Source: Nitrospirota bacterium (lineage in GTDB: Bacteria; Nitrospirota; JACRHL01). Taken from it: 64,000 nucleotides of DNA. The stretch covers positions 321,178 to 385,177 of the forward strand of contig JACRHL010000003.1 in the NCBI GenBank assembly GCA_016212085.1. The letters are read 5' to 3'. The position numbers were made by a program, and so were the translations under genes. Below are positions 17,766 through 50,160 of the stretch, in pieces. The notes under the pieces were generated by a model. That model made no database searches and was not told where the DNA came from. It saw only the letters and a program-made list of their open reading frames with translations. Positions within the stretch are counted from its first letter, which is position 1. Each line of letters begins with the position of its first letter.

Positions 17766-18170
17766 ATGACCGACGGATTCTATTACGCGATACTCATATC
17801 CTGGCTGCTGTCGTTCCTGTTCTACGGCCTCGCCGGAGGGCTGATCAAGGCCCGCACGGTCGGCCGCACGCCGCACATCATGCTCACCGTGGGCGGCTTC
17901 ATGACCGACTTCGTCGCCTACTTCTTCCAGACCCAGCACCTGGTGATCCTGGCGGCCACCGTGCCCGGCTTCGCCCTGGACCCGGCGCTGCGCGGCTGGC
18001 AGACCGTGGCGACAAACCTGTCCATGGCCATGTATTGCGTGACGGCGATGTTCGGCTTCGCGCGCGTTGTCGGGTGGCACGGCGTGGGCCGCTGGCACGT
18101 GCCCGTGGCGCTGCTGTTCGTGGTCAACCTGGTGACGGCGCGGACCCTCTACTGGCGGCTGATTAACTAG
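17766..18170 (+). CDS. hypothetical small membrane protein
   Basis: 134-aa ORF with 3-4 predicted TM helices; ends with TAG inside the CTAG that flanks the downstream repeat; no recognised family. Confidence 0.4.
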   Translation: MTDGFYYAILISWLLSFLFYGLAGGLIKARTVGRTPHIMLTVGGFMTDFVAYFFQTQHLVILAATVPGFALDPALRGWQTVATNLSMAMYCVTAMFGFARVVGWHGVGRWHVPVALLFVVNLVTARTLYWRLIN

Positions 18171-18335
18171 CAGACTGTTGAAAAAGTCCTTCCATGGACT
18201 TTCTCAACTCGAAACCGGCAAAGCGCGGTTTCCCGGTTTCTCCGGATTGCAGGCGCTGACGCGCTCGCAATCCGCCGGCACATCCCTGTGCCGGACGCAG
18301 ACATGCCGAAAAACGGTGTTTTAACCGCCTGCTAG
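18167..18335. mobile_element. hairpin-rich mosaic repeat element, family A (copy 1), flanked by CTAG/CTAG
   Basis: Core 18171-18331 begins CAGACTGTTGAAAAAGTCC...GGACTTTCTCAAC (perfect hairpin), further hairpins inside; CTAG at 18167-18170 and 18332-18335 provide TAG stops to the convergent flanking genes. Confidence 0.6.
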
Positions 18336-19630
18336 CCGCGCTCCAGGCGGCGCGAGACGGCGTGGGCCGCCTCCCACACCGTCTCGCTCAGGGTGGGGTG
18401 CGGAAACACCGCCGCCGCCAGGTCGTGAACGGTCATCCCGGCCCGGATGCAGGCCCCCAGCAGGCCCGCCAGATCGGTCACCCCCGCCCCCGCGAGCTGG
18501 GCGCCCGCCAGCCGCCCCGCCCCGTCCGCCACCAGCCGCACGCCGCCCGCCACCTGGCCGGTCACCACCGCCATGCCGTTGGCGCGGAAGATGGCCTCGC
18601 CGGTCACCCGGTCCGGCCCGGCGCCCACCCCCACCGAGGCCAGTTGCGGATGGGTGTAGATGCACGCCGGGATCAGCATCGCGTCCAGCGGCGCCGGGTT
18701 CCTGCCCGCCAGCCACTCGGCGGCGATGCGCCCCTGGGCATGGGCCCGATGGGCAAGCAGCGGCGGGCCGCTCAGGTCGCCGATGGCGAGCACCCCGTCC
18801 ACGGCGGTGCGGCCGTGACCATCCACCGGGATGCCCCACGGTTGCGGATCGAGGCCCACGGCGTCCAGCCCCAGGCCGCTCAGGTTGGGATCCCGCCCCA
18901 CCGCCACCAGCACCTGGTCCGCCGCCAGTTCCCGCTCCCCGTCCGGGCCCGCCACGCGCAGGGCGATGCCCTCCGCCGTCACCGTGGCGGCGGTGACGGC
19001 CGCGCCGCACAGCATGTCGATGCCGGCGGCGCCGAATGCCCGCTCCAGGTGTCTGGCCAGCCACGGGTCCTCACCGGGAAGCAGGCGCTCGCGGGCCTCG
19101 ACCAGGGTCACCCGCGCGCCACGGGCGCGGAAGATCTCGGCGAACTCCACCCCCACCGCCCCGGCACCGATCACGACCAGGTGGCCGGGAACGGCCCCCG
19201 GCGCCACCGCGTGGTCGCTGGACAGCACGCGCGCGCCGTCGAACGGCAGGCCGGCCAGGGGGCGCGGCCGGGAGCCGGTGGCGAGCACCACATGGCGGAA
19301 ACGCACCTCCCCGTGCCCGGCCACATCGGCCACGCCGGGGCCGGCCAGGCGCGCGGCGCCGGGCAGCACGGCGACCTTTTTCAACAACTGGGCGATCCCC
19401 CGGCGCAGGGCGGCAATGGCCGCGTCGTTCATGGCCACCCGCTCCGCCAGCGCCACACCGGCGCCGGCCAGCAGCCCCTTGGTGGGGATGCAGCCCCGGT
19501 TCAGGCACACGCCGCCCAGCTCCGCCGGCTCCGCCAGCGCCACGCGCAGGCCCAGCTCCGCCGCGCGCGCCGCGCAGGCGTAGCCACCGGGGCCGCCGCC
19601 CACCACCAGCAGGTCGAAGCGATCAGCCAC
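18332..19630 (-). CDS. FAD-dependent pyridine nucleotide-disulfide oxidoreductase (dihydrolipoyl dehydrogenase family)
   Basis: DLLVVGGGPGGY FAD motif, redox-active GGVCLNRGCIPTK disulfide, NAD site VVIGAGAVG; GTG start 19630 after GGAGGG. Confidence 0.75.
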   Translation of the reverse strand: MADRFDLLVVGGGPGGYACAARAAELGLRVALAEPAELGGVCLNRGCIPTKGLLAGAGVALAERVAMNDAAIAALRRGIAQLLKKVAVLPGAARLAGPGVADVAGHGEVRFRHVVLATGSRPRPLAGLPFDGARVLSSDHAVAPGAVPGHLVVIGAGAVGVEFAEIFRARGARVTLVEARERLLPGEDPWLARHLERAFGAAGIDMLCGAAVTAATVTAEGIALRVAGPDGERELAADQVLVAVGRDPNLSGLGLDAVGLDPQPWGIPVDGHGRTAVDGVLAIGDLSGPPLLAHRAHAQGRIAAEWLAGRNPAPLDAMLIPACIYTHPQLASVGVGAGPDRVTGEAIFRANGMAVVTGQVAGGVRLVADGAGRLAGAQLAGAGVTDLAGLLGACIRAGMTVHDLAAAVFPHPTLSETVWEAAHAVSRRLERG

Positions 19631-20222
19631 CGTTCCCTCCCCGTTGCAGGATGCCGGTCCTGAGCAGCATTTCCGCCATGGCTTCATACCCGGCGGGCGC
19701 CGGGTGCGCCACGTCCGCCAGCAGGCCGGCGCCGACCGTGCCATCCGCCGACCGGAAGGCCCGGTCGAAGGGCACCACGCGCACATGGCGGGTGCCCGCC
19801 AGCGTGTTCACGAACTGCCGGTACCCCGCCAAGATCCGCTCGCAGCGCGCGTCCAGGAACGGCGGCGGCATGCCGATCACCGGCACCACCCCGGCGTTGG
19901 CCAGGGCTTCCACCATGGCCCCCAGGTCGGCGGCCATGTCCGGCACCGGGCGCCCCAGGGCGGCGTCGTTGGTGCCGCCGGTGACGATGCACGCCACCGG
20001 CCGCGCCGCCAGCACCCGGCCCAGGCGGGCGCGCATGCCGGCCAGGGTATCGCCGTTCACCCCCATGTTGATGATCTCCACCCCGCTGGCCCGCGCCGCC
20101 AGCGCCACCCACGACGCATGCGTGCCCTCCGGGAAACCCCAGGTGATGGAGTCGCCCAGCGCCACGAAGCGGTGCCGGGTGGCGCCCGCCGCGTCGTTTT
20201 CGCTGCTGACCGGGTGGTACAT
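19623..20222 (-). CDS. SGNH/GDSL-family hydrolase
   Basis: GDSIT block near N-terminus, later GTND; ATG 20222 chosen (track start 20258 is TTG). Confidence 0.6.
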   Translation of the reverse strand: MYHPVSSENDAAGATRHRFVALGDSITWGFPEGTHASWVALAARASGVEIINMGVNGDTLAGMRARLGRVLAARPVACIVTGGTNDAALGRPVPDMAADLGAMVEALANAGVVPVIGMPPPFLDARCERILAGYRQFVNTLAGTRHVRVVPFDRAFRSADGTVGAGLLADVAHPAPAGYEAMAEMLLRTGILQRGGNGG

Positions 20223-20329
20223 GGCGCTACTGTACGGCGCCCGCGCGCGGGGCGTCAAAGCCCGCCAGGAACGGACATGGCGCGCTCACCCTGGCCCGAC
20301 CGCGCGGGGCCGGGGTACACTTGCTCCCC

Positions 20330-21220
20330 ATGGGACCGCCTCGCCAGACACCGGGAACCGACCACGCGGCGCTTCGCGAGCACCGGGCCCACCCGCGCGC
20401 CTTTCACGAGAACCGCTACGTGTACGCCGTGCTGTCGCGGCGCTCCGGCGGCATCTCCATCGGCGTCAACCTGAACCCGGACAAGCGCTGCAACTTCGAC
20501 TGCATCTACTGCCAGGTGGACCGCCGGTGCATGCCGCCGCCGGAGCCGGTGAACCTGGAACAACTGCGCGACGAGCTGGAGGGCGTCCTGGCCGCCGCCG
20601 CCCGCGGCGACCTGTACGCCGAGGCGCGCTTCCGCGACCTGCCGCCCCCCCTGAGACAGGTGCGCGACATCGCCCTGTCCGGCGACGGCGAGCCCACCCA
20701 GTGCACCCGTTTCGAGCGGGTGGCCGAGGTGGTCACCGAACTGGCCGCCCGCCACGCCACGCCACCGCTGCCGGTGGTGCTGATCACCAACGCCACCGGC
20801 CTGAACCGGAGCCGGGTGGTGCGCGGGGTGGACCGCATCATGGCCGGCGGCGGCGCCATCTGGGCCAAGCTCGACGCGGGCACGGCGGAGCGCTACGCGC
20901 GCATCTGCGGCCACCGGGTGCCGTTCCGGAAGGTGCTGGACAACCTGGCGGCCACCGCGCGCCGCCACCCCGTCACCCTGCAAACCTGCCTGTTCAACCT
21001 GGAGGGCAGCCCCCCGCCGGACGGGGAGATCGACGCCTACGCGAAACAGCTCGCCAAAATATTGGCGAATGACGGTCAAATCCTTGGCATCCAGCTTTAC
21101 ACGGTGGCCAGAAAACCGGCGGAATCCTGCGTGACCGCCCTCGACGCGTCCACCCTGGACGCCATCGCCGCCCGCATCGGCGCGGCCCTGCCCACGGTGC
21201 CGCTGCACGTTTATCCATAG
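20330..21220 (+). CDS. radical SAM domain protein
   Basis: CNFDCIYC (CxxxCxxC) about 50 aa from start, preceded by SRRSGGISIGVNLNP; start uncertain (ATG 20330 vs TTG 20321). Confidence 0.7.
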   Translation: MGPPRQTPGTDHAALREHRAHPRAFHENRYVYAVLSRRSGGISIGVNLNPDKRCNFDCIYCQVDRRCMPPPEPVNLEQLRDELEGVLAAAARGDLYAEARFRDLPPPLRQVRDIALSGDGEPTQCTRFERVAEVVTELAARHATPPLPVVLITNATGLNRSRVVRGVDRIMAGGGAIWAKLDAGTAERYARICGHRVPFRKVLDNLAATARRHPVTLQTCLFNLEGSPPPDGEIDAYAKQLAKILANDGQILGIQLYTVARKPAESCVTALDASTLDAIAARIGAALPTVPLHVYP

Positions 21221-21385
21221 CAGGATGTTGAAAAAGTCCCTCCATGGACTTTTTCAACTCGAAAACGGCAAAGCGTGGTTTCCCGTTCTCTCCGGGTTTC
21301 AAGCGCTTGCGCGCCTGAAACCCGCCGGTACCTCCCTGTACCGGGCGCAGGCTGTTGAAAAAGTCCCTCCATGGACTTTTTCCAA
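21218..21385. mobile_element. hairpin-rich mosaic repeat element, family A (copy 2)
   Basis: Begins immediately after radical-SAM TAG stop: TAG|CAGGATGTTGAAAAAGTCCCTCCATGGACTTTTTCAAC...; same hairpin repeated at its 3' end; TAG/ATAG at both ends. Confidence 0.55.
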
Positions 21386-21507
21386 TAGACCGGCCCGTGA
21401 CCGGCGCCCGGCGGCGCCGCCGGCGCGGGGTTGGCGCAGGGTTGGCACGGGAAATGCTATTCCTAACCTTTCGGGAGGGACAAAACCGCCCCCCGGAAGG
21501 AATCGTC

Positions 21508-21658: not shown

Positions 21659-21801
21659 GGGCACCTCTAAAAACCTGCTACGCGGTTCGATTGCTGCGTT
21701 GGGCGGTGCTCGAACCCTCTCCTATCACCATGATATGTCTCGGGTTCTGTGCTCCGGCCACCTTGCACTCGAACCGCTCGCAACGGTTTTTAGAGGTGCC
21801 C
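21659..21801. mobile_element. 143-bp MITE, family B (intergenic copy upstream of dnaE)
   Basis: TIRs GGGCACCTCTAAAAACC / GGTTTTTAGAGGTGCCC; 4-bp direct duplication TGGT on both sides. Confidence 0.7.
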
Positions 21802-21952: not shown

Positions 21953-25579
<3,627 letters not shown>

Positions 25580-25620: not shown

Positions 25621-26574
25621 ATGGTGCGCCAATACCTGGATTTCGAGAAACCCATCGCCGACATCCACGAGCAGATCGAGTCCCTGCGCGCGTCCGGCGC
25701 CGCCCCCGGCACCCACGACAAGGAGCTTGAGCGCCTCACCAAGAAGGCCCACTCCCTCGAGGTGGACATCTACGGCAAGCTCTCCCCCTGGCAGCAGACG
25801 CAACTGGCGCGCCACCCGGAGCGCCCCTCCATGCTCGACTACGTGGAAAAGTTCGTGGAGGGCTTCCTGGAACTGCACGGCGACCGCGCCTATCGGGACG
25901 ATCCGGCCATCGTCGGCGGCATCGGCCGTATCGGCACGCGCGAGGTGGTGATCATCGGCAACCAGAAGGGCCGCACCCTCAAGACCCGCGTCATCCGCAA
26001 CTTCGGCATGGCCAACCCGGAGGGGTACCGCAAGGCCCTGCGCCTGATGCACATGGCCGAGCGCTTCAAGAAGCCCGTGGTCTGCTTTGTCGACACCCCC
26101 GGCGCCTACCCCGGCATGGGCGCCGAGGAGCGCGGCCAGTCCGAGGCCATCGCCCGCAACCTGATGGAGATGGGCCGGCTCAAGGTGCCCATCGTGGTGG
26201 TCATCATCGGCGAGGGCGGCTCCGGCGGCGCCCTGGCGGTGGGCGTGGGCGACCGCATCCTGATGCTCGAGAACTCCGTCTACTCCGTCATCTCCCCCGA
26301 GGGGTGCGCGGCCATCCTGTGGAAGGACGGCACCAAGACCGCCACCGCCGCCGAGGCCCTGAAGGTGACCGCCAAGGATCTGTTGGCGCTGAAGGTGATC
26401 GACGAGATCCTGCCCGAGCCCCTGGGCGGCGGCCACCACGACGTGACCCAGATGTCCACCACCATCCGCACCGCCATCGTGCGCCACCTGGACCAGCTCG
26501 AGAAGATGTCCGAGAAGGAGCGCACCGAGGCCAGGTACCAGAAGTTCCGCGCCATGGGCGTGTACGAGGGCTAG
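25621..26574 (+). CDS. accA: acetyl-CoA carboxylase carboxyltransferase subunit alpha
   Basis: 317 aa colinear with remembered AccA (DFEKPIA, FDDPAIVGG-like, GEGGSGGALA); RBS ggag. Confidence 0.95.
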   Translation: MVRQYLDFEKPIADIHEQIESLRASGAAPGTHDKELERLTKKAHSLEVDIYGKLSPWQQTQLARHPERPSMLDYVEKFVEGFLELHGDRAYRDDPAIVGGIGRIGTREVVIIGNQKGRTLKTRVIRNFGMANPEGYRKALRLMHMAERFKKPVVCFVDTPGAYPGMGAEERGQSEAIARNLMEMGRLKVPIVVVIIGEGGSGGALAVGVGDRILMLENSVYSVISPEGCAAILWKDGTKTATAAEALKVTAKDLLALKVIDEILPEPLGGGHHDVTQMSTTIRTAIVRHLDQLEKMSEKERTEARYQKFRAMGVYEG

Positions 26575-26652
26575 ACCGCTGGACGGTACAGACCGAGACG
26601 CCCCCCGAGACGACGCCCCGCCCGGCGCCCCCGCGCCCCAGCCCCCCCGGTC

Positions 26653-26742
26653 CGCCGGCAGCCTGCCGGACAATTCCCTGCCCGACGGCAGCCCGCCGGA
26701 TGATTCGTTTTCCGACGGCAGCCTGCCGTTCGGGCCCCTGCG
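26653..26742 (+). repeat. three tandem 30-bp direct repeats, each with a near-palindrome GGCAGCCTGCC
   Basis: Units cgccggcagcctgccggacaattccctgcc / cgacggcagcccgccggatgattcgttttc / cgacggcagcctgccgttcgggcccctgcg. Confidence 0.6.
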
Positions 26743-26947
26743 CTACCGCATCGACCGCCGCGAGATCGCCTATTTAAGCTCCCTGTTCGAGTCCTACGAG
26801 GACCTGGGCGCCATCCGTACCCTGGACCCGGTGGCGGCGATCATCGAGGTTCTGTATGCTCCGGATTGCTACGCGGACGTGGTGGCGTTGATGACGGCGC
26901 TGGAGGGGGAGGTGGAGAGCCTGGAACGGATGCCACCGCTCCCGTAG
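26738..26947 (+). CDS. small conserved-looking ORF (DUF4911-like) lacking a canonical start codon
   Basis: Protein-like translation ...YRIDRREIAYLSSLFESYEDLGAIRTLDPVAAIIEVLYAPDCYADVVALMTALEGE...; no in-frame ATG/GTG/TTG upstream; CTG at 26738 proposed; family assignment from memory only. Confidence 0.3.
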   Translation: MRYRIDRREIAYLSSLFESYEDLGAIRTLDPVAAIIEVLYAPDCYADVVALMTALEGEVESLERMPPLP

Positions 26948-26968
26948 GCTGGCGCTGAATGAAATGAA

Positions 26969-27023
26969 GCCCAACGGTTCGGGGTTGCCGACGAACCATG
27001 AACGGGAAACGGGGGTGTTGGGC
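26969..27023 (+). other. attC-like site (candidate): GCCCAAC ... GTTGGGC
   Basis: Perfectly complementary 7-mers matching integron core consensus RYYYAAC / GTTRRRY, 41 bp apart, at the left boundary of the low-GC island. Confidence 0.3.
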
Positions 27024-27089
27024 TTCGCGTTGCATGCGCCAGAAGCTCGTCGATACAACGCTCCAATCGCCTGGGGATGGGAGATGGTC

Positions 27090-27815
27090 ATGAAGAAACT
27101 TGAAATTAAGAACTGGGACGGATTTTCGGGCAAGATCAGCGAAATTGAAAAGGATGCCTCGGAAAACAGCAACGCCATTCGGCTATTCCGAGGGGTTACC
27201 GATCATCAACATAACCTAGTCCCGAAAATCGGGAGACCCGGCGCGCGGAAGAATCCGGCAGATGGGACGCAACTGTCCCATTGCAAGGATGAAGAGCGTA
27301 AGATGTTGGAACTGTTCAAGAGGACGGCTCTTCCATACCTTCCATATCAGCCCAGGAATGATCTGGAGTGGCTTGCCGTTGCCCAACACCACGGAGCGCC
27401 GACCCGCCTGATTGACTGGACGGAAAGTCCCCTGGTTGCAGCGTATTTCGCGATGGAGAAGGCTGGCACGGAGGGGCAGCCGGCGATCTACGTGCTTTCC
27501 GGGACTGCGGAAGCCCCGGAGAAACTAGTTGACGAAAAGCCGGATGTCTTCTCCTGGACCGAGACGTACTGCTACCGTCCGCCACACATCAGTCCCCGTA
27601 TCCAAGTTCAGCGGAGCGTGTTCACCATACACCATTGTCCTTCGTCGGAGTTCAATCCAGATAACCTTGAAAAATGGGTGTTCCCGAAAGGTCCAACGTG
27701 CTTCGAGATCAAACGCATACTTGATCGTGTGGGCTTTAACCGAGCATCCCTATATCCAGATTTACAGGGGTTGGCAGAACACGTCGGATGGTGCTACAAG
27801 TGGGGCCGCTTCTAG
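27090..27815 (+). CDS. FRG-domain protein
   Basis: LFRGVTDHQHNLVPKIGR and AQHHGAPTRLIDWTESPLVAAYFA motifs characteristic of the FRG domain; ~47% GC versus ~70% background; ATG 27090 with gggag RBS. Confidence 0.7.
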   Translation: MKKLEIKNWDGFSGKISEIEKDASENSNAIRLFRGVTDHQHNLVPKIGRPGARKNPADGTQLSHCKDEERKMLELFKRTALPYLPYQPRNDLEWLAVAQHHGAPTRLIDWTESPLVAAYFAMEKAGTEGQPAIYVLSGTAEAPEKLVDEKPDVFSWTETYCYRPPHISPRIQVQRSVFTIHHCPSSEFNPDNLEKWVFPKGPTCFEIKRILDRVGFNRASLYPDLQGLAEHVGWCYKWGRF

Positions 27816-27880
27816 TGGCAAGTTGGGGTTCGCTCCGCTCTGCCAAACTTATATAGCTTTTCCAACTGGGAAACCGTGCT

Positions 27881-28276
27881 TTGAACATCCACGCAATCAC
27901 CGTCTCAGCCGTTAGGATCGCTCTAGCTGCTCTCATGTGCGGCGGATTGGCATCTTGCGTCCATACACGAAGTATCACCTACGAAACGACCGACAGGCCG
28001 CCGAAGCCACAAGACCGATTGATCGGGATCGTGGACTCCCAAACCGTTACTAGGCCATTCACGATCATCGGTGTTGTAGAAGGAAACGCCGGGAAGCTGC
28101 ATAGTGTCGTGGATACGTTGGAAAACCTCAAGCGTGCGGCTCGGCGGATGGGCGGCGACGCCTTGATGGATATTCAACACGGGCCCAAGGGGGGTGTGGC
28201 AGTGCCCTTCGGAAGCGGCTATGCCTATGGGAATTTAAGGGAAATCTGGTCAGCGAAAGTGATTATCTGGCAGTAG
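27881..28276 (+). CDS. putative lipoprotein (hypothetical)
   Basis: Signal peptide with lipobox LASC; ~55% GC; TTG start at 27881 (uncertain); weak resemblance to the YbjQ-like fold only. Confidence 0.4.
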   Translation: MNIHAITVSAVRIALAALMCGGLASCVHTRSITYETTDRPPKPQDRLIGIVDSQTVTRPFTIIGVVEGNAGKLHSVVDTLENLKRAARRMGGDALMDIQHGPKGGVAVPFGSGYAYGNLREIWSAKVIIWQ

Positions 28277-28279
28277 CCC

Positions 28280-28347
28280 GTTGGGCAGAGCAACGCGAAG
28301 CCAAACGCCACGGTGGCCACCCGTGGCACTCCGGGAAGGCGTTGGGC
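28280..28347 (+). other. attC-like repeats at right boundary of low-GC island
   Basis: GTTGGGC (28280-28286), GCCAAAC (28300-28306), palindrome gccacggtggccacccgtggc, GTTGGGC (28341-28347); the 17-mer GTTGGGCTTCGCGTTGC recurs inverted relative to the left boundary. Confidence 0.3.
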
Positions 28348-28451: not shown

Positions 28452-29147
28452 CTAAGGCATCGAATAAACGGTTGGGTCTTCCTGCCCTGCCTCCACAAAT
28501 CCCCTCCTCCGCAAAATGCAGCTATCGCACTGCCCGCACGCCCGGCCCTTCTCGTCCGGGTCGTAGCAGCTATGGGTCAGGCCGTAGTCCACCCCCAGGC
28601 GGATTCCCTCCCGGATGATGTCCGCCTTGGTCATGCGGATCAGGGGGGCGTGGATGGTGAAGCGGCCGCCCTCGGCGCCGGCCTTGGTGGCCAGGTTGGC
28701 CAGGTTCTCGAAGGCGCCCAGGAATTCCGGCCGGCAGTCCGGGTAGCCCGAGTAGTCGATGGCGTTGGCGCCCACGAAGATGTGGAACGCGCCCAGCACC
28801 TCGGCATAGGCCAGGGCCAGGGCCAGGAACACCGTGTTGCGCGCGGGCACGTAGGTGACCGGGATGTCGTCCCCCATGTGTTCGGCGCTGCGGCCCTTGG
28901 GCACGTCTATCGCGTCCGTCAGGGCGGAGCCGCCCAGGTCGCTCAAGTCCACCCGCACCGTCTTGTGGGCCAGGGCGCCCCCGGCCGCCGCCACCTTCCG
29001 CGCCGCCGCCAGTTCCACCCGGTGGCGCTGGCCATAGTCGAAGCTGATGGCGTAGGGGGCGTAGCCCTGGGCCTTCGCCATGGCCAGCACCGTGGCCGAA
29101 TCCAGGCCGCCGCTCACCAGCACCACCGCCTTCCGGACACCTTCCAA
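28452..29147 (-). CDS. queC: 7-cyano-7-deazaguanine synthase
   Basis: N-terminal [14 protein letters not shown]-loop, C-terminal Zn-binding CGQCDSC; proposed TTG start 29147 lies inside the adjacent MITE terminus. Confidence 0.8.
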
Positions 29148-29277
29148 AACCTGCCGCGCGCCCCGATCGCTGCGTTGGGCGGTGCCCGGCCCCTCGCCTA
29201 TCGGCTTGACATGTCTCGGGGCCTGCGCTCCGTCCGCCTTGCGCTCGGGGCGCTCGCCACGGTTTCCGATGGTGCCC
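29135..29277. mobile_element. 143-bp MITE, family B (degenerate copy at queC 5' end)
   Basis: Degenerate TIRs GGACACCTTCCAAAACC / GGTTTCCGATGGTGCCC; internal sequence matches other copies (ccgagacatgtc, gcgatcggggcgcgc). Confidence 0.6.
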
Positions 29278-34281: not shown

Positions 34282-34446
34282 GGGCACCTCTATTAACCGT
34301 CGCGCGCGCCCCCTGGTGCCAGGTGCCCCGAGCGGAGCGGCACCGTTACGCCGCGCGGAACCCGAGACATATCCGGGTGATGGGCGAGGGTTCGAGCACC
34401 GCTGGGCGCGGCAATCGGGGCGCGCGGCAGGTTGATAGAGGTGCCC
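34282..34446. mobile_element. 165-bp MITE, family B (copy with internal expansion)
   Basis: TIRs GGGCACCTCTATTAACC / GGTTGATAGAGGTGCCC; no matching target duplication; abuts transposase remnant. Confidence 0.7.
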
Positions 34447-38557: not shown

Positions 38558-38690
38558 GTTCCCATGCAGTGTGTTGCAAAAGCTCTTCCCCGGCTTGTTC
38601 AACTCGAAACCGGAAAAGCGTGGTTTTCCGGTTTCTCCGGCGCCAGAAAAGCCTCTCACACGGATTGTCACCCTGCGGATGCGGGCGGGT
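38558..38690. repeat. partial family A repeat element
   Basis: ttgttcaactcgaaaccggaaaagcgtggttttccggtttctccgg closely matches the central hairpin module of the other family A copies. Confidence 0.45.
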
Positions 38691-39436: not shown

Positions 39437-39581
39437 GGGCACCTCTATTAACCGTCGCGAGCGCCCCGAGCGCAAGGCGGACTTAAGCGGAGAACCCGAG
39501 ACATATCATGGTGATAGGAGAGGGTTCGAGCACCGCTTAGGCGCAGCAATCGGGGCGCACAGCAGGTTAATAGAGGTGCCC
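39437..39581. mobile_element. 145-bp MITE, family B
   Basis: TIRs GGGCACCTCTATTAACC / GGTTAATAGAGGTGCCC; 4-bp duplication ACAT on both sides. Confidence 0.75.
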
Positions 39582-44976: not shown

Positions 44977-45109
44977 GGGCGACTAAAAACTACTGCGCGG
45001 CTCGATTGCCGCGTTGGGCGGTGCCCGCACTCTCTCCACGAGATGTCTCGGGTCATGCGCTCCGTCCGCCTTGTGCCCGAACCATTCGCGTCGGTTGTTG
45101 GCGGTACCC
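44977..45109. mobile_element. 133-bp MITE, family B (degenerate copy)
   Basis: Degenerate termini GGGCGACTAAAAAC / GGTTGTTGGCGGTACCC; internal match to family core. Confidence 0.55.
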
Positions 45110-47323: not shown

Positions 47324-47523
47324 GACGGTTTCCTCCTGATCAGGGCCCATGCGATCATGCCCACGAAGCATGCCAGGGCCGGCAGCAACACGTAGTTCAG
47401 CCACCCCACCCACGCCGACAGGCCCAAGGCGCCCAGCAGGATCACCAGCGCGGGCGTGAAGCAGCAGACGGCGGCGAGGGTGGTGCCGGCGATTCCGGTC
47501 CCGAGCAGTCTCTTGTCCGTCAT
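47311..47523 (-). CDS. merF: mercury transporter MerF-like
   Basis: 70 aa, two TM helices, vicinal Cys (LAAVCCFTPALVILLG), C-terminal Cys; ATG overlaps merB stop (ATGA). Confidence 0.75.
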   Translation of the reverse strand: MTDKRLLGTGIAGTTLAAVCCFTPALVILLGALGLSAWVGWLNYVLLPALACFVGMIAWALIRRKPSCRS

Positions 47524-48302
47524 CGTGATGTCCTTCGCGGGTTGGATGCAAGGGTTGAAAGCGGCGCCAGGAGCGGCGCGAAGATGGCCTTGCCGACCTG
47601 GAGCCCCTCGTCGATGGAGAGGCGCACACCCGGCGCGCCCCCTGGTTGAGATTGGCGCCAGGATACGAGGTGCTCGTCGGAGCAGAAGAACGCCAGCGCC
47701 GGGCAGAGGGTGTCGGCGGCACAGCCGCCGGTGTTCCTCGCCCCCGCCCAGACCACGGCGCCCTCGGGCGCCACGGCCTCCAGGGTAGCGCCCCGGTCTC
47801 GGGTGGTGACATGGACGGCCGCGCCGCAAGTGGCGCAGGCCGAGTCGATGGCGGTGTCTGTGCGATACATGGCCCCGGCGCCCAGGGCGTCGATGGCGCA
47901 CATGGCGTTCAGCACCTGGCCGCCCAGCCGTACCCGGTGCCCGGTTTCCCGGTCCCGGAACGGGTAGGCCCCCGTCACGTCGCCGTGTGCGTCCAGCACC
48001 ACCAGGTCGCGCCCTTCCAGTTGCCGCAGCAGGCGGCGTACCTCGTCCAGCGGCAGGTCGGCGGCGAGGTGTTCGACGGAAGGGGCACGGCCCCGATCCG
48101 CATAGCCATCGAGCACGGCCCGCCGCACGCGGTCCTCCGCCTCCCCCATGCCGGTCCAGCACCGTTCGGCGTCGAATGCGGCGAGGATCGCGGCCAGTGC
48201 CCGACGGGCCGCCTCCGAGGTGATTGCCGACCAATCCGGGAAGGTCACGCCGGGTCCGATGGAGATTTCGAGGGGGGTCCGGGTGGGTCGCGGTATGTCC
48301 AT
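47520..48302 (-). CDS. merB: organomercurial lyase
   Basis: Catalytic-region match (NAMCAIDALG with Cys/Asp, later Cys cluster); ~45-aa N-terminal extension; GGAGG RBS before ATG 48302. Confidence 0.7.
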   Translation of the reverse strand: MDIPRPTRTPLEISIGPGVTFPDWSAITSEAARRALAAILAAFDAERCWTGMGEAEDRVRRAVLDGYADRGRAPSVEHLAADLPLDEVRRLLRQLEGRDLVVLDAHGDVTGAYPFRDRETGHRVRLGGQVLNAMCAIDALGAGAMYRTDTAIDSACATCGAAVHVTTRDRGATLEAVAPEGAVVWAGARNTGGCAADTLCPALAFFCSDEHLVSWRQSQPGGAPGVRLSIDEGLQVGKAIFAPLLAPLSTLASNPRRTSR

Positions 48303-48322
48303 GCGCTGGCCCTCCATGCTCA

Positions 48323-48465
48323 GGGCACCTCTATTAACCGTCGCGAGCGCTCCGATTGCAAGGCGGACGGAGCGGAGAACCCGAGACATATCTGGGTGAT
48401 AGGCGAGGGTTCGAGCACCGCCCAACGCAGCAATCGGAGCGCGCAGTAGGTTAATAGAGGTGCCC
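48323..48465. mobile_element. 143-bp MITE, family B (inside mer operon, between merP and merB)
   Basis: TIRs GGGCACCTCTATTAACC / GGTTAATAGAGGTGCCC; 4-bp duplication CTCA on both sides. Confidence 0.75.
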
Positions 48466-48466
48466 C

Positions 48467-48748
48467 TCACTCGACCGGCCGCGAGGGGTAGCCGGCGTTG
48501 GTCGTCGCCCGGGTGAGGGCCCCCACGTCCGTGAGCACATCGTCGAACGTCACCACGGCTTGCTTGTGCAACAGGGACACCTTGACCGCCTTCACGCCGG
48601 GAACATGGGAAAGGGCCTTTTTCACGGTGATCGGGCAGGTGACGCAGGTCATCCGCTCCACCCCCAGGGTGACGGTCCGCTCCGTCGCGATGGCGTTTCC
48701 GGTGGACACCAGGAGAGCGACGGCCACCAGGATCGGTACAAGCTTCAT
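48467..48748 (-). CDS. merP: periplasmic mercury-binding protein
   Basis: Signal peptide plus HMA motif GMTCVTCPITVKKAL; 93 aa; AGGAGGG RBS. Confidence 0.85.
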   Translation of the reverse strand: MKLVPILVAVALLVSTGNAIATERTVTLGVERMTCVTCPITVKKALSHVPGVKAVKVSLLHKQAVVTFDDVLTDVGALTRATTNAGYPSRPVE

Positions 48749-48768
48749 CGGATCGTCCCTCCTTCCGT

Positions 48769-49155
48769 TCAGACACCCCCGTACAGGGGGGCCAGGTAGG
48801 GCAGCGCCAGGATCGCCAGCACCAGTAGCGCCGCGCTCCACAAGGCAATCTTCACCATCCGCCCGGAACCGGGCCGGGTGCACTCCCCCTCCGGCCCGCA
48901 GGCGGCCGCCGGCTTCCGGTAGGCGAGCCGGAACCCGGCGGCGAGCAGGACGACGGTCAGGGCCATGAAGTAGGGCTGGTACGGCGCCAGGGCCGTCAGC
49001 CCGCCCATCCAGGCGCCGCCCAACCCCAGGCTTACCAGCACCAGCGGCAGGATGCAGCAGGACGAGGCGGCGAGTGCCCCCAGCACGGCGCCGCCGGCGA
49101 CCACGCCGCGCCGGGCATGACCGCCGCCAATGTGCTCTCCACCCGCGTCCTTCAC
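48769..49155 (-). CDS. merT: mercuric ion transport protein
   Basis: First TM helix with vicinal Cys (LAASSCCILPLVLVSLG), second Cys pair (CGPEGEC); GTG start 49155 overlaps upstream stop (GTGA); alternative ATG 49218. Confidence 0.7.
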   Translation of the reverse strand: MKDAGGEHIGGGHARRGVVAGGAVLGALAASSCCILPLVLVSLGLGGAWMGGLTALAPYQPYFMALTVVLLAAGFRLAYRKPAAACGPEGECTRPGSGRMVKIALWSAALLVLAILALPYLAPLYGGV

Positions 49156-49418
49156 AGCGCCCGACCGACGCCCGCGGCTCGCAACCGCGCCTCGTCCACC
49201 CCCGCGCCCGCACAGCATTGGGCCAGGCGGCCATCCACCGCCACCGCCGGGAGCGCCCGCACCCCCAGATCGGCCGCCTTCGCCGCCACGGCGGGTGCGC
49301 GCATGTCCAGCACGCTCACCGCGCACGCGGGGCAGGCGAGCCGCTCCACGAGGCGGACCGCCTCCTCGCACACGGGGCACCCGGCGCTGAATACCTCGAC
49401 CCTGCGTTTGTCGGTCAT
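49152..49418 (-). CDS. thioredoxin-fold protein with CPxC active site
   Basis: 88 aa; RVEVFSAGCPVCEEA...LPAVAVDGRL resembles small thioredoxin-family proteins; GGAGGAA RBS; first gene after the mer promoter. Confidence 0.6.
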   Translation of the reverse strand: MTDKRRVEVFSAGCPVCEEAVRLVERLACPACAVSVLDMRAPAVAAKAADLGVRALPAVAVDGRLAQCCAGAGVDEARLRAAGVGRAL

Positions 49419-49518
49419 CGTTCTTCCTCCCGACTTGCGTGGCCGCCGCCCCCGGAAAACGGGTTTGGCGGCCGTGCGGTTCCATACCTGGCAGGGGCCG
49501 CGTGCCCCCTCTTCTGCT

Positions 49519-49549
49519 ACGATAGAACCTGTAGTGGCTACAGGTTCAA
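49519..49549 (-). promoter_or_regulatory. MerR-type promoter/operator: -35 TTGAAC, 19-bp spacer containing dyad, -10 TATCGT
   Basis: On the minus strand TTGAAC-(19 bp)-TATCGT; the spacer holds the perfect inverted repeat GAACCTGTAG-tgg-CTACAGGTTC (49525-49547); lies between divergent merR and the mer operon. Confidence 0.6.
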
Positions 49550-49566
49550 GGGGGGAGCGGAAAAAA

Positions 49567-49989
49567 ATGGGCACGGAAGCGGATTCGGTCTGTTCCATCG
49601 GGGCGCTGGCGGCGCGTACCGGCGTCAACGCGGAGACGATCCGCTACTACGAGCGGATCGGGCTGTTGCCCCGGCCGCGGCGCACGGACGGCGGACATCG
49701 CCTGTACGACCACGGCCAGCGCAAGCGGCTCGTCTTCATCCGGCGGGCGCGGGAGCTGGGCTTCTCGGTGGAAGAGGTGCGGGAACTGCTACGGCTGGTG
49801 GACGGCGGCGATCACACCTGCGCCGAGGTGAAATCCGTCACCGTGCGTCATCTGGCCGACGTGCGCCGGAAGCTCGCGGATCTCGGGAAGCTGGAGCGGA
49901 CCTTGGGCACGATCTCCGCGCGCTGCGCGGGCGGACTGGTGCCGGACTGCCCCATCCTGGATGCGCTGTTCGAGGACGGGCTTGGCTAG
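49567..49989 (+). CDS. merR: Hg(II)-responsive transcriptional regulator MerR
   Basis: N-terminal HTH (IGALAARTGVNAETIRYYERIGLL), metal-binding Cys triad (HTCAEV ... CAGGLVPDCP); GGGGAG RBS. Confidence 0.85.
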   Translation: MGTEADSVCSIGALAARTGVNAETIRYYERIGLLPRPRRTDGGHRLYDHGQRKRLVFIRRARELGFSVEEVRELLRLVDGGDHTCAEVKSVTVRHLADVRRKLADLGKLERTLGTISARCAGGLVPDCPILDALFEDGLG

Positions 49990-50155
49990 CAGGTTGTTGA
50001 AAAACGGCGTTTTTCGGCATGACTGCGTCCGGTACCGGGAGGTACCGGCGGATTTCACGCGGGCAAGCGCCTGGAATCCGGAGAAACCGGGAAACCGCGC
50101 TGTTCCGGCTTCAAGTTGAAAAAGGCCACGGATGGACTTCTTCAACATCCCGCCG
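49986..50155. mobile_element. hairpin-rich mosaic repeat element, family A (copy 4, opposite orientation)
   Basis: Starts at merR stop: CTAG|CAGGTTGTTGAAAAACGG...; ~80% identical to the reverse complement of copy 1. Confidence 0.55.
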
Positions 50156-50160
50156 GACCA

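Follow-up and report, generated by a model that had tools for sequence, protein, structure and literature searches.

Hairpin-rich repeats next to stop codons in a Nitrospirota genome: a probable MITE family with the ends and YTAR target of an IS5-family lineage

Why should a short, non-coding repeat begin exactly where a gene ends? The 64-kb stretch of DNA analysed here (referred to as a whole as the window) has a G+C content of 70% and belongs to an uncultured Nitrospirae MAG. A sequence-only reading of it had pointed out hairpin-rich repeats, here termed family A, that begin directly after TAG stop codons, and our analysis agrees with this for all three full copies. The same reading proposed that these repeats are insertions with a preference for CTAG and a 4-bp duplication, that they are funnelled to stop codons because CTAG is otherwise rare, and that their hairpins could act as bidirectional terminators. 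We therefore asked what kind of element family A is, which target it uses, and whether its position at stop codons and its hairpins reflect the way it inserts or a use by the host.

Copies in the window, their flanks and their structure

Family A is represented in the window by three copies of ~160 bp and one partial copy, and a profile search of the 64 kb found no copy beyond these four. Copies 1-3 are 161-165 bp long, non-coding and without an ORF of their own. An internal 28-nt motif has four matches in the window against 0.00 expected, and GTTGAAAAAGTCC has 22 matches at up to 3 mismatches against 4.4 expected.

Copy 1 is a 161-bp element on the plus strand (18171-18331) and lies between two CTAGs. 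The left CTAG (18167-18170) contains the TAG stop (18168-18170) of an ORF for a hypothetical protein (17766-18170, plus strand), which has an uncertain start and no Pfam match. The right CTAG (18332-18335) supplies, at 18332-18334, the reverse-complement TAG stop of a convergent gene for a FAD-dependent pyridine nucleotide-disulphide oxidoreductase of 432 aa (18332-19630, minus strand). The arrangement first noticed, in which each CTAG gives a TAG stop to one of two convergent genes, was confirmed. Under the 4-bp duplication model taken from relatives in other genomes, the two CTAGs would be the left and right copies of the target-site duplication. The oxidoreductase is 100% identical to a database protein from a "Nitrospirae bacterium", and its next best relatives share ~65% protein identity with it. 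Its C-terminus lies no more than 3 residues from the point at which its homologues end, so the insertion of copy 1 caused no truncation.

Copy 2 (21221-21384, plus strand) abuts the TAG stop (21218-21220) of a radical-SAM-like gene (20321-21220, plus strand). The 4-mer before it (21217-21220) is ATAG, not CTAG, and a second ATAG at 21385-21388, directly after the element, may be the other copy of its duplication. A Logan contig of this region (SRR12113394; window positions 18271-21376) ends inside copy 1 and inside copy 2, as expected because repeats break short-read assembly.

Copy 3 (49990-50153, 164 bp, minus strand) is inverted with respect to copies 1 and 2. It adjoins an intact CTAG copy of the duplication (49986-49989), which holds the TAG stop (49987-49989) of a MerR-family regulator gene on the plus strand; the longest ORF of this gene spans 49117-49989, and the gene itself probably starts downstream of 49117. 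Where the second duplication copy would be expected (50154-50157), the sequence is CCGG, which is two AT-to-GC transitions away from CTAG and serves as the stop of no gene. An intact CTAG that serves as a stop, opposite a decayed CCGG that does not, would fit selection acting on the stop alone. Only copy 1 retains CTAG on both sides. Copy 3 adjoins a mercury-related cluster (47520-49989) that comprises a MerB-like alkylmercury lyase domain, an HMA domain protein and the MerR-family regulator.

The partial copy that had been suspected at 38558-38690 is real. Copy 4 spans 38566-38690 on the plus strand, with an nhmmer match at 38567-38660 and weaker similarity up to ~38690. The first two hairpins of the family (H1 and H2, described below) are recognisable in it, its right end is gone, and its left flank is CATG rather than YTAR. 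It occupies the interval that separates the stop of a Crp-like gene (38702) from the start of the next minus-strand gene. All but one of the four window copies lie directly against the 3' end of one or more genes. Contrary to the sequence-only reading, copy 3 ends at 50153 rather than 50155.

Alignment of the four copies yielded a 16-bp consensus for the terminal inverted repeat (TIR), CAGGNTGTTGAAAAAG; copies 1 and 3 carry it at each end, and dozens of relatives share it. The left TIR of copy 1 (CAGACTGTTGAAAAAG, 18171-18186) has one mismatch to the consensus, and its right TIR, which reads CAGGCGGTTAAAACAC in reverse complement (18316-18331), departs from it at 4 of 16 positions. Copy 2 carries a perfect left TIR (CAGGATGTTGAAAAAG) and has no proper right TIR: where its right end should be, the left-end hairpin H1 appears a second time in direct orientation (21348-21384). 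In copy 3, the end at 49990 reads CAGGTTGTTGAAAAAC (one mismatch), and the end at 50153, in reverse complement, reads CGGGATGTTGAAGAAG (two mismatches). The window copies are mutually 73-84% identical with worn ends; they are probably old insertions that, because of their age and decayed ends, are no longer mobile.

The elements are built largely of hairpins. Copies 1 and 2 form a row of four or five hairpins and have folding z-scores of -7.6 to -7.9 relative to dinucleotide-shuffled sequences. In copy 1, these are H1 (18177-18208), H2 (18211-18240), H3 (18243-18274), H4 (18275-18294) and a degenerate H5 (18314-18327). H1 consists of the left repeat paired with an internal inverted copy (GTTGAAAAAGTCC / GGACTTTTTCAAC), H5 likewise of the right repeat paired with its own internal copy, and H2, H3 and H4 are G+C-rich stems. 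Rfam 15 returned no match to family A at the gathering threshold, and only matches far below the threshold in E-value mode.

The window holds further repeats. A second, more abundant MITE-like family of ~143-165 bp, with the TIRs GGGCACCTCTATTAACCG, has copies at 21659-21801, 24463-24606, 29135-29277, 34282-34446, 39437-39581, 44985-45109 and 48323-48465. Three of them have identical 4-bp direct flanks (TGGT, ACAT and CTCA), which suggests that this family makes a 4-bp duplication without YTAR preference. One copy of it lies in the same intergenic region upstream of dnaE as copy 2 of family A. Three tandem 30-bp units, 75-78% identical, are found at 26651-26750, just downstream of a gene that ends at 26574. 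An island of low G+C content (26774-28300; 54% against 70% for the window) contains an FRG-domain ORF (26964-27815) and 5 of the 19 CTAGs of the window; it is probably foreign DNA.

Target site, duplication and full-length relatives

To define the target, we turned to relatives of family A in other genomes. Species-representative genomes were scanned with the terminal repeat alone (CAGNNTGTTGAAAAAGTCC), which gave at least 120 loci; among the matches listed, many come from Nitrospira and other Nitrospirota, groundwater Deltaproteobacteria (Desulfobacterota), Sedimenticola and others. YTAR stands directly before the TIR in 74 of the 123 genome matches listed, against a background of 0.48% at the same loci (p ~1e-137). 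Within this group, the 4-mer before CAG is CTAG in 26 cases, CTAA in 22, TTAG in 16 and TTAA in 10. Moreover, 40 of the 74 two-ended elements at the listed genome loci have identical 4-bp flanks, and many of the others have flanks that differ by one base. Among these 40, 25 have non-palindromic direct repeats (CTAA..CTAA, TTAG..TTAG, CTAT..CTAT, GTAA..GTAA and CTTC..CTTC) and none has inverted ones. Non-palindromic 4-mers that are repeated directly and never inverted in these genomes show a true 4-bp duplication and an element that starts at CAG. A metagenome scan with YTARCAGGNTGTTGAAAAAG, in which the YTAR flank was kept and TCC was dropped, returned 120 loci; these include 51 two-ended MITEs of 79-353 bp, 29 of which have identical 4-bp flanks. 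Of the original proposal of a CTAG target with a 4-bp duplication, the duplication therefore stands on the direct flanks, and the target has to be widened from CTAG to YTAR.

The direct flanks also bear on a MITE of the IS630/Tc1-mariner type, which would insert at the TA of CTAG, duplicate TA only and own the flanking G and C as its terminal bases. IS630 is cited as preferring TA within 5'-CTAG-3' (Tenzen and Ohtsubo 1991, cited in PMC2170065), a preference that matches the flanks of copy 1. Copy 1 taken alone can be read equally well as C-TA-[GCAG...CTGC]-TA-G and as CTAG-[CAG...CTG]-CTAG, and the ATAG of copy 2 is compatible with duplication of TA only. However, the base that precedes CAG may be A, G or T in relatives, and it recurs as a direct repeat at the opposite end, with direct outnumbering inverted non-palindromic 4-mers by 25 to 0 in genomes and by 12+2 to 1+1 in metagenomes. 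A TA duplication of the IS630 style, considered for its CTAG preference, was ruled out on these non-palindromic direct repeats, and the full-length partner described below encodes an IS5-family rather than an IS630-family transposase; we regard this origin as extremely improbable.

We sought a transposase partner by several routes. In the window, Pfam searches of the ORFs, including those of the low-G+C island, found no transposase and no autonomous element with the same ends. The first 120 listed genome loci comprised MITEs only, and neither clustering of their ORFs nor tblastn with the InsH protein of E. coli IS5 found a partner there; the ORFs inside one-ended genome matches yielded none either. 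In metagenomes, 20 two-ended, full-length elements of 1265-1535 bp carry the same 16-nt ends as family A, and 13 of these 20 have identical 4-bp flanks, mostly CTAG. Their ORF of ~365-385 aa contains the Pfam domains DUF772 and DDE_Tnp_1 and scores 273 bits, against a cut-off of 140, with the NCBIfam model NF033581 ("IS5 family transposase"). This is also the best model for InsH of E. coli IS5, which scores 364 bits; the two proteins share ~25% identity over 107 residues.

A homologous protein annotated as IS5 family transposase is found in 316 plasmid records, predominantly those of rhizobia, Burkholderia and Azospirillum. For example, Sinorhizobium meliloti pSymA (CP140947.1, positions 425-1941 of our locus L260) has a 1517-bp element of the form CTAG|CAGGCTGTTGAAAAAG…CTTCTTCAACAGCCTG|CTAG. 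This element lies just downstream of a gene annotated as an ISRm4-3 family transposase (positions 1-309 of the same locus), and it carries a second small ORF, for a hypothetical protein of 114 aa, after its transposase gene.

Only the terminal 16-22 nt of family A align with these full-length insertion sequences. Therefore, family A is not a simple deletion derivative of them: the ends are common to both, and the body is not. The internal 28-nt motif had no match in collections of genome and metagenome contigs that do not include the source genome or its close relatives. A blastn search of plasmids with copy 2 gave chance matches only, and a scan of viral contigs gave 17 matches, all of them coding-sequence coincidences in related phages. 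A literal search of literature text found no occurrence of TGTTGAAAAAGTCC.

The terminal sequence is shared beyond family A. Several MITE subfamilies whose cores are unrelated begin with the same 19-nt end (loci L003, L009, L012, L020, L026, L043, L077, L092, L120 and others). One subfamily is of a Nitrospira type (…GTCCGCCAGCTTTGTTCTCGCATCGCTCAGAGGCTCAACGTAC…), another is of a Deltaproteobacteria type, and in a third, from Desulfovibrionales, a further TIR-like repeat, GGCTGTTCAAAAAT, lies immediately inside the terminal one.

The full-length relatives also weigh against a single-strand remnant of the IS200/IS605 (PATE) type, which would be guided by hairpins and inserted 3' of TAG or CTAG without duplication. 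Such an origin would account for elements that are built of hairpins, subterminal ones included, and that each start right after a fixed short motif. Yet family A and its relatives have true TIRs and direct 4-bp flank repeats, and the full-length relatives encode a DDE transposase, not Y1/TnpA or TnpB, which leaves this reading hardly any probability. Other candidates were set aside as well. IS701, ISH3 and ISAs1, compared by means of published tables of ends and duplications (PMC2266710), were dropped once the IS5-family partner was found, and Chunjie, a MITE of Geobacter, has 9-bp direct repeats and is hence a different element.

Taken together, family A is most probably (probability about 0.88) a MITE with the ends and the 4-bp YTAR target of an IS5-family insertion sequence lineage, for which a duplication at stop codons is expected and harmless. 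As is characteristic of bacterial MITEs, it is short and non-coding, has TIRs and a fixed-length duplication, and is present in multiple dispersed copies. As is characteristic of the IS5 family, its duplication is a 4-bp YTAR and its ends are those of an element with an IS5-family DDE transposase. It was presumably mobilised in trans by the transposase of such a partner. Within the window, this mobile-element reading is limited in that both duplication copies are intact in copy 1 only, that copy 2 has lost its right TIR and that copy 4 is incomplete.

Insertion at stop codons and the role of the hairpins

We propose the following mechanism for insertion. An IS5-family DDE transposase (DUF772 and DDE_Tnp_1), supplied in trans, would bind both ends, as its family membership suggests. 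It would cut YTAR with a 4-base stagger, and repair of the gaps would duplicate the four bases. YTAR reads TAA or TAG on both strands, so that a stop codon of this kind preceded by C or T is a target site. Because TAR lies inside the target, an association with stop codons follows; because the duplication keeps the original stop in place, insertions at stops are harmless and persist. The sequence upstream of each copy, stop included, would stay unchanged, and both stops beside copy 1 would be native. Before copy 1 arrived, the two convergent genes may have had one palindromic CTAG in common (…ATT AAC TAG / CTA GCC…; empty site ...ATTAACTAGCCGCGC...). Since the insertion duplicated CTAG, each gene would have kept its own TAG, with 161 bp of hairpins between them. 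We infer both this state before insertion and the filtering of insertions by selection.

Is the position at stop codons more than the target would predict? CTAG is depleted in the window (19 in 64 kb; observed/expected 0.33), as had been claimed. Of these 19 CTAG sites 12, and of the 55 YTAR sites 15, are stops of ORFs with coding-like G+C at codon positions. All three datable window copies are on such stops, compared with 12 of the 52 other YTAR sites (p = 0.017), a small sample compared post hoc. Of 49 elements in other genomes, only 12 touch the stop of an ORF that has 100 codons or more, and control YTAR sites do so in 15.6% of cases (odds ratio 1.75, p = 0.11); the rise of stop-codon overlap with host GC that was predicted is absent in these 49 relatives. 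TAG is an unusually frequent stop for a genome of 70% G+C, with 20 of 50 crude gene calls in the window ending in TAG, 26 in TGA and 4 in TAA.

These numbers leave room for coincidence, in which any YTAR is targeted and the hits simply mirror the distribution of CTAG in the genome. As 12 of the 19 window CTAGs are already stops, three CTAG insertions would all fall on stops with a probability of ~0.25, and the excess elsewhere is neither significant nor accompanied by a GC trend. Set against this are the window comparison with all YTAR sites and the consideration that selection would remove insertions within coding sequences, so that some enrichment at stops is expected. We give coincidence slightly less than an even chance. 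Under the IS5-family reading, insertion at a stop codon is a recurrent and expected outcome of the YTAR target, not a rule, and funnelling of insertions to stop codons is plausible but weak.

The proposal that the hairpins act as bidirectional terminators found no support. A scan for consensus terminators called none inside family A elements, and no T-rich tail follows any strong hairpin (dG of -10 to -26 kcal/mol), with at most 3 T in 8 nt. Runs of T occur only within the stems of H1 and H5, which have the form A5-GTCC…GGAC-T5 with a 4-bp G+C core. Since no strong hairpin is followed by a U-tract, the terminator idea is unsupported.

The hairpins are nevertheless conserved as structures. In other genomes, 23 elements have the H1-H5 layout of family A, and 17 of them were aligned. 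In this alignment, standard pairs make up 86.7% of pair cells, compared with 37-52% once the partners are slid 1-3 columns out of register; changes on both sides are seen in 30 of 57 pairs, against 7-20 in the slid controls; and the score for covariation is 0.295, compared with 0.06-0.12. In 500 shuffles, the observed value was never attained on four of five measures, and it was attained once for further pair types. The stem sequences of H2-H4 are wholly different between hosts, with their positions and lengths kept. The five-hairpin core is therefore kept by compensatory changes across phyla. This conservation could reflect a cis-requirement for transposition, a use at the level of the host, or palindrome-templated repair.

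A use by the host would give the stop-codon sites a different meaning: the transposon would have been kept because its hairpin array serves as a transcription barrier or as a protector of mRNA 3' ends, in the manner of REP/BIME. The compensatory changes in all five hairpins across distant genomes, the position of three of the four window copies at gene 3' ends and the A5-GTCC-loop-GGAC-T5 layout of H1 are all in keeping with it. But the strong hairpins are without a U-tract and no terminator-like site was called, the hairpins could equally be explained by a need in transposition or by palindrome-templated repair, and most copies in other genomes lie away from stop codons. We consider such host use doubtful. 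A broader possibility, to which we give only a little more credence and which is still unlikely, is a multi-phylum MITE lineage whose hairpins are under selection and function either in transposition or as an RNA 3'-end or transcription-barrier module. If true, family A would be more than the inert debris of an IS5-like element, with a lineage that extends over Nitrospirota, Gammaproteobacteria (Sedimenticola), Desulfobacterota and others.

Significance and comparison with known systems

As an IS5-family MITE, family A is real but ordinary; its conserved five-hairpin core is the less usual feature. Its value is mostly for annotation, as it explains a class of intergenic repeats and the contig breaks associated with them in an uncultured, 70%-GC Nitrospirae genome. 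It also offers a concrete case of a transposon that, with a stop codon in its target, can settle at the ends of genes without harming them. Beyond this, the implications are modest: many unrelated MITE cores in many phyla carry one and the same 16-nt IS5-type end.

The closest known systems are the full-length IS5-family insertion sequences of the S. meliloti pSymA type, which have the same terminal 16 nt and the same duplication of the 4-bp flank as family A. They are 1.27-1.53 kb long and encode a transposase, whereas family A is ~160 bp and non-coding. MITEPsy1, likewise small and non-coding, and its presumed IS5-family parent ISPsy2, from Pseudomonas syringae pv. phaseolicola, have a 4-nt duplication of CTAG or YTAA and the TIR GGAAGGTCTGAAAAAGCC (PMC3189936). 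Positions 9-16 of this TIR (TGAAAAAG) are identical to family A, and the terminal 8 nt are GGAAGGTC in MITEPsy1 against CAGGNTGT in family A. Additionally, MITEPsy1 is 100 bp long and has a narrow host range, and a five-hairpin core is not described for it.

IS5 itself has YTAR as its target and a 4-bp duplication (PMC5009759). The real ends of E. coli IS5, read from an E. coli plasmid, are GGAAGGTGCGAACAAGTCCCT, and from position 10 to position 21 the left end of IS5 (GAACAAGTCCCT) agrees with family A (GAAAAAGTCCCT, within the family A end CAGGATGTTGAAAAAGTCCCT) in 11 of the 12 bases. The outermost 9 nt are not the same (GGAAGGTGC in IS5, CAGGATGTT in family A). InsH and the transposase of the family A partner fall under the same NCBIfam model, at the low identity given above.

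MITEs derived from IS630/Tc1-mariner elements, such as Correia and RUP, are also short intergenic elements with TIRs (PMC10969869). They duplicate TA only, whereas the relatives of family A duplicate four bases. REP/BIME and ERIC-type repeats resemble family A in being hairpin-rich and placed after genes, and they can stabilise the upstream mRNA. REP units, however, are 20-40 nt long, are linked to RAYT transposases and have neither TIRs nor a target duplication, whereas family A has both.
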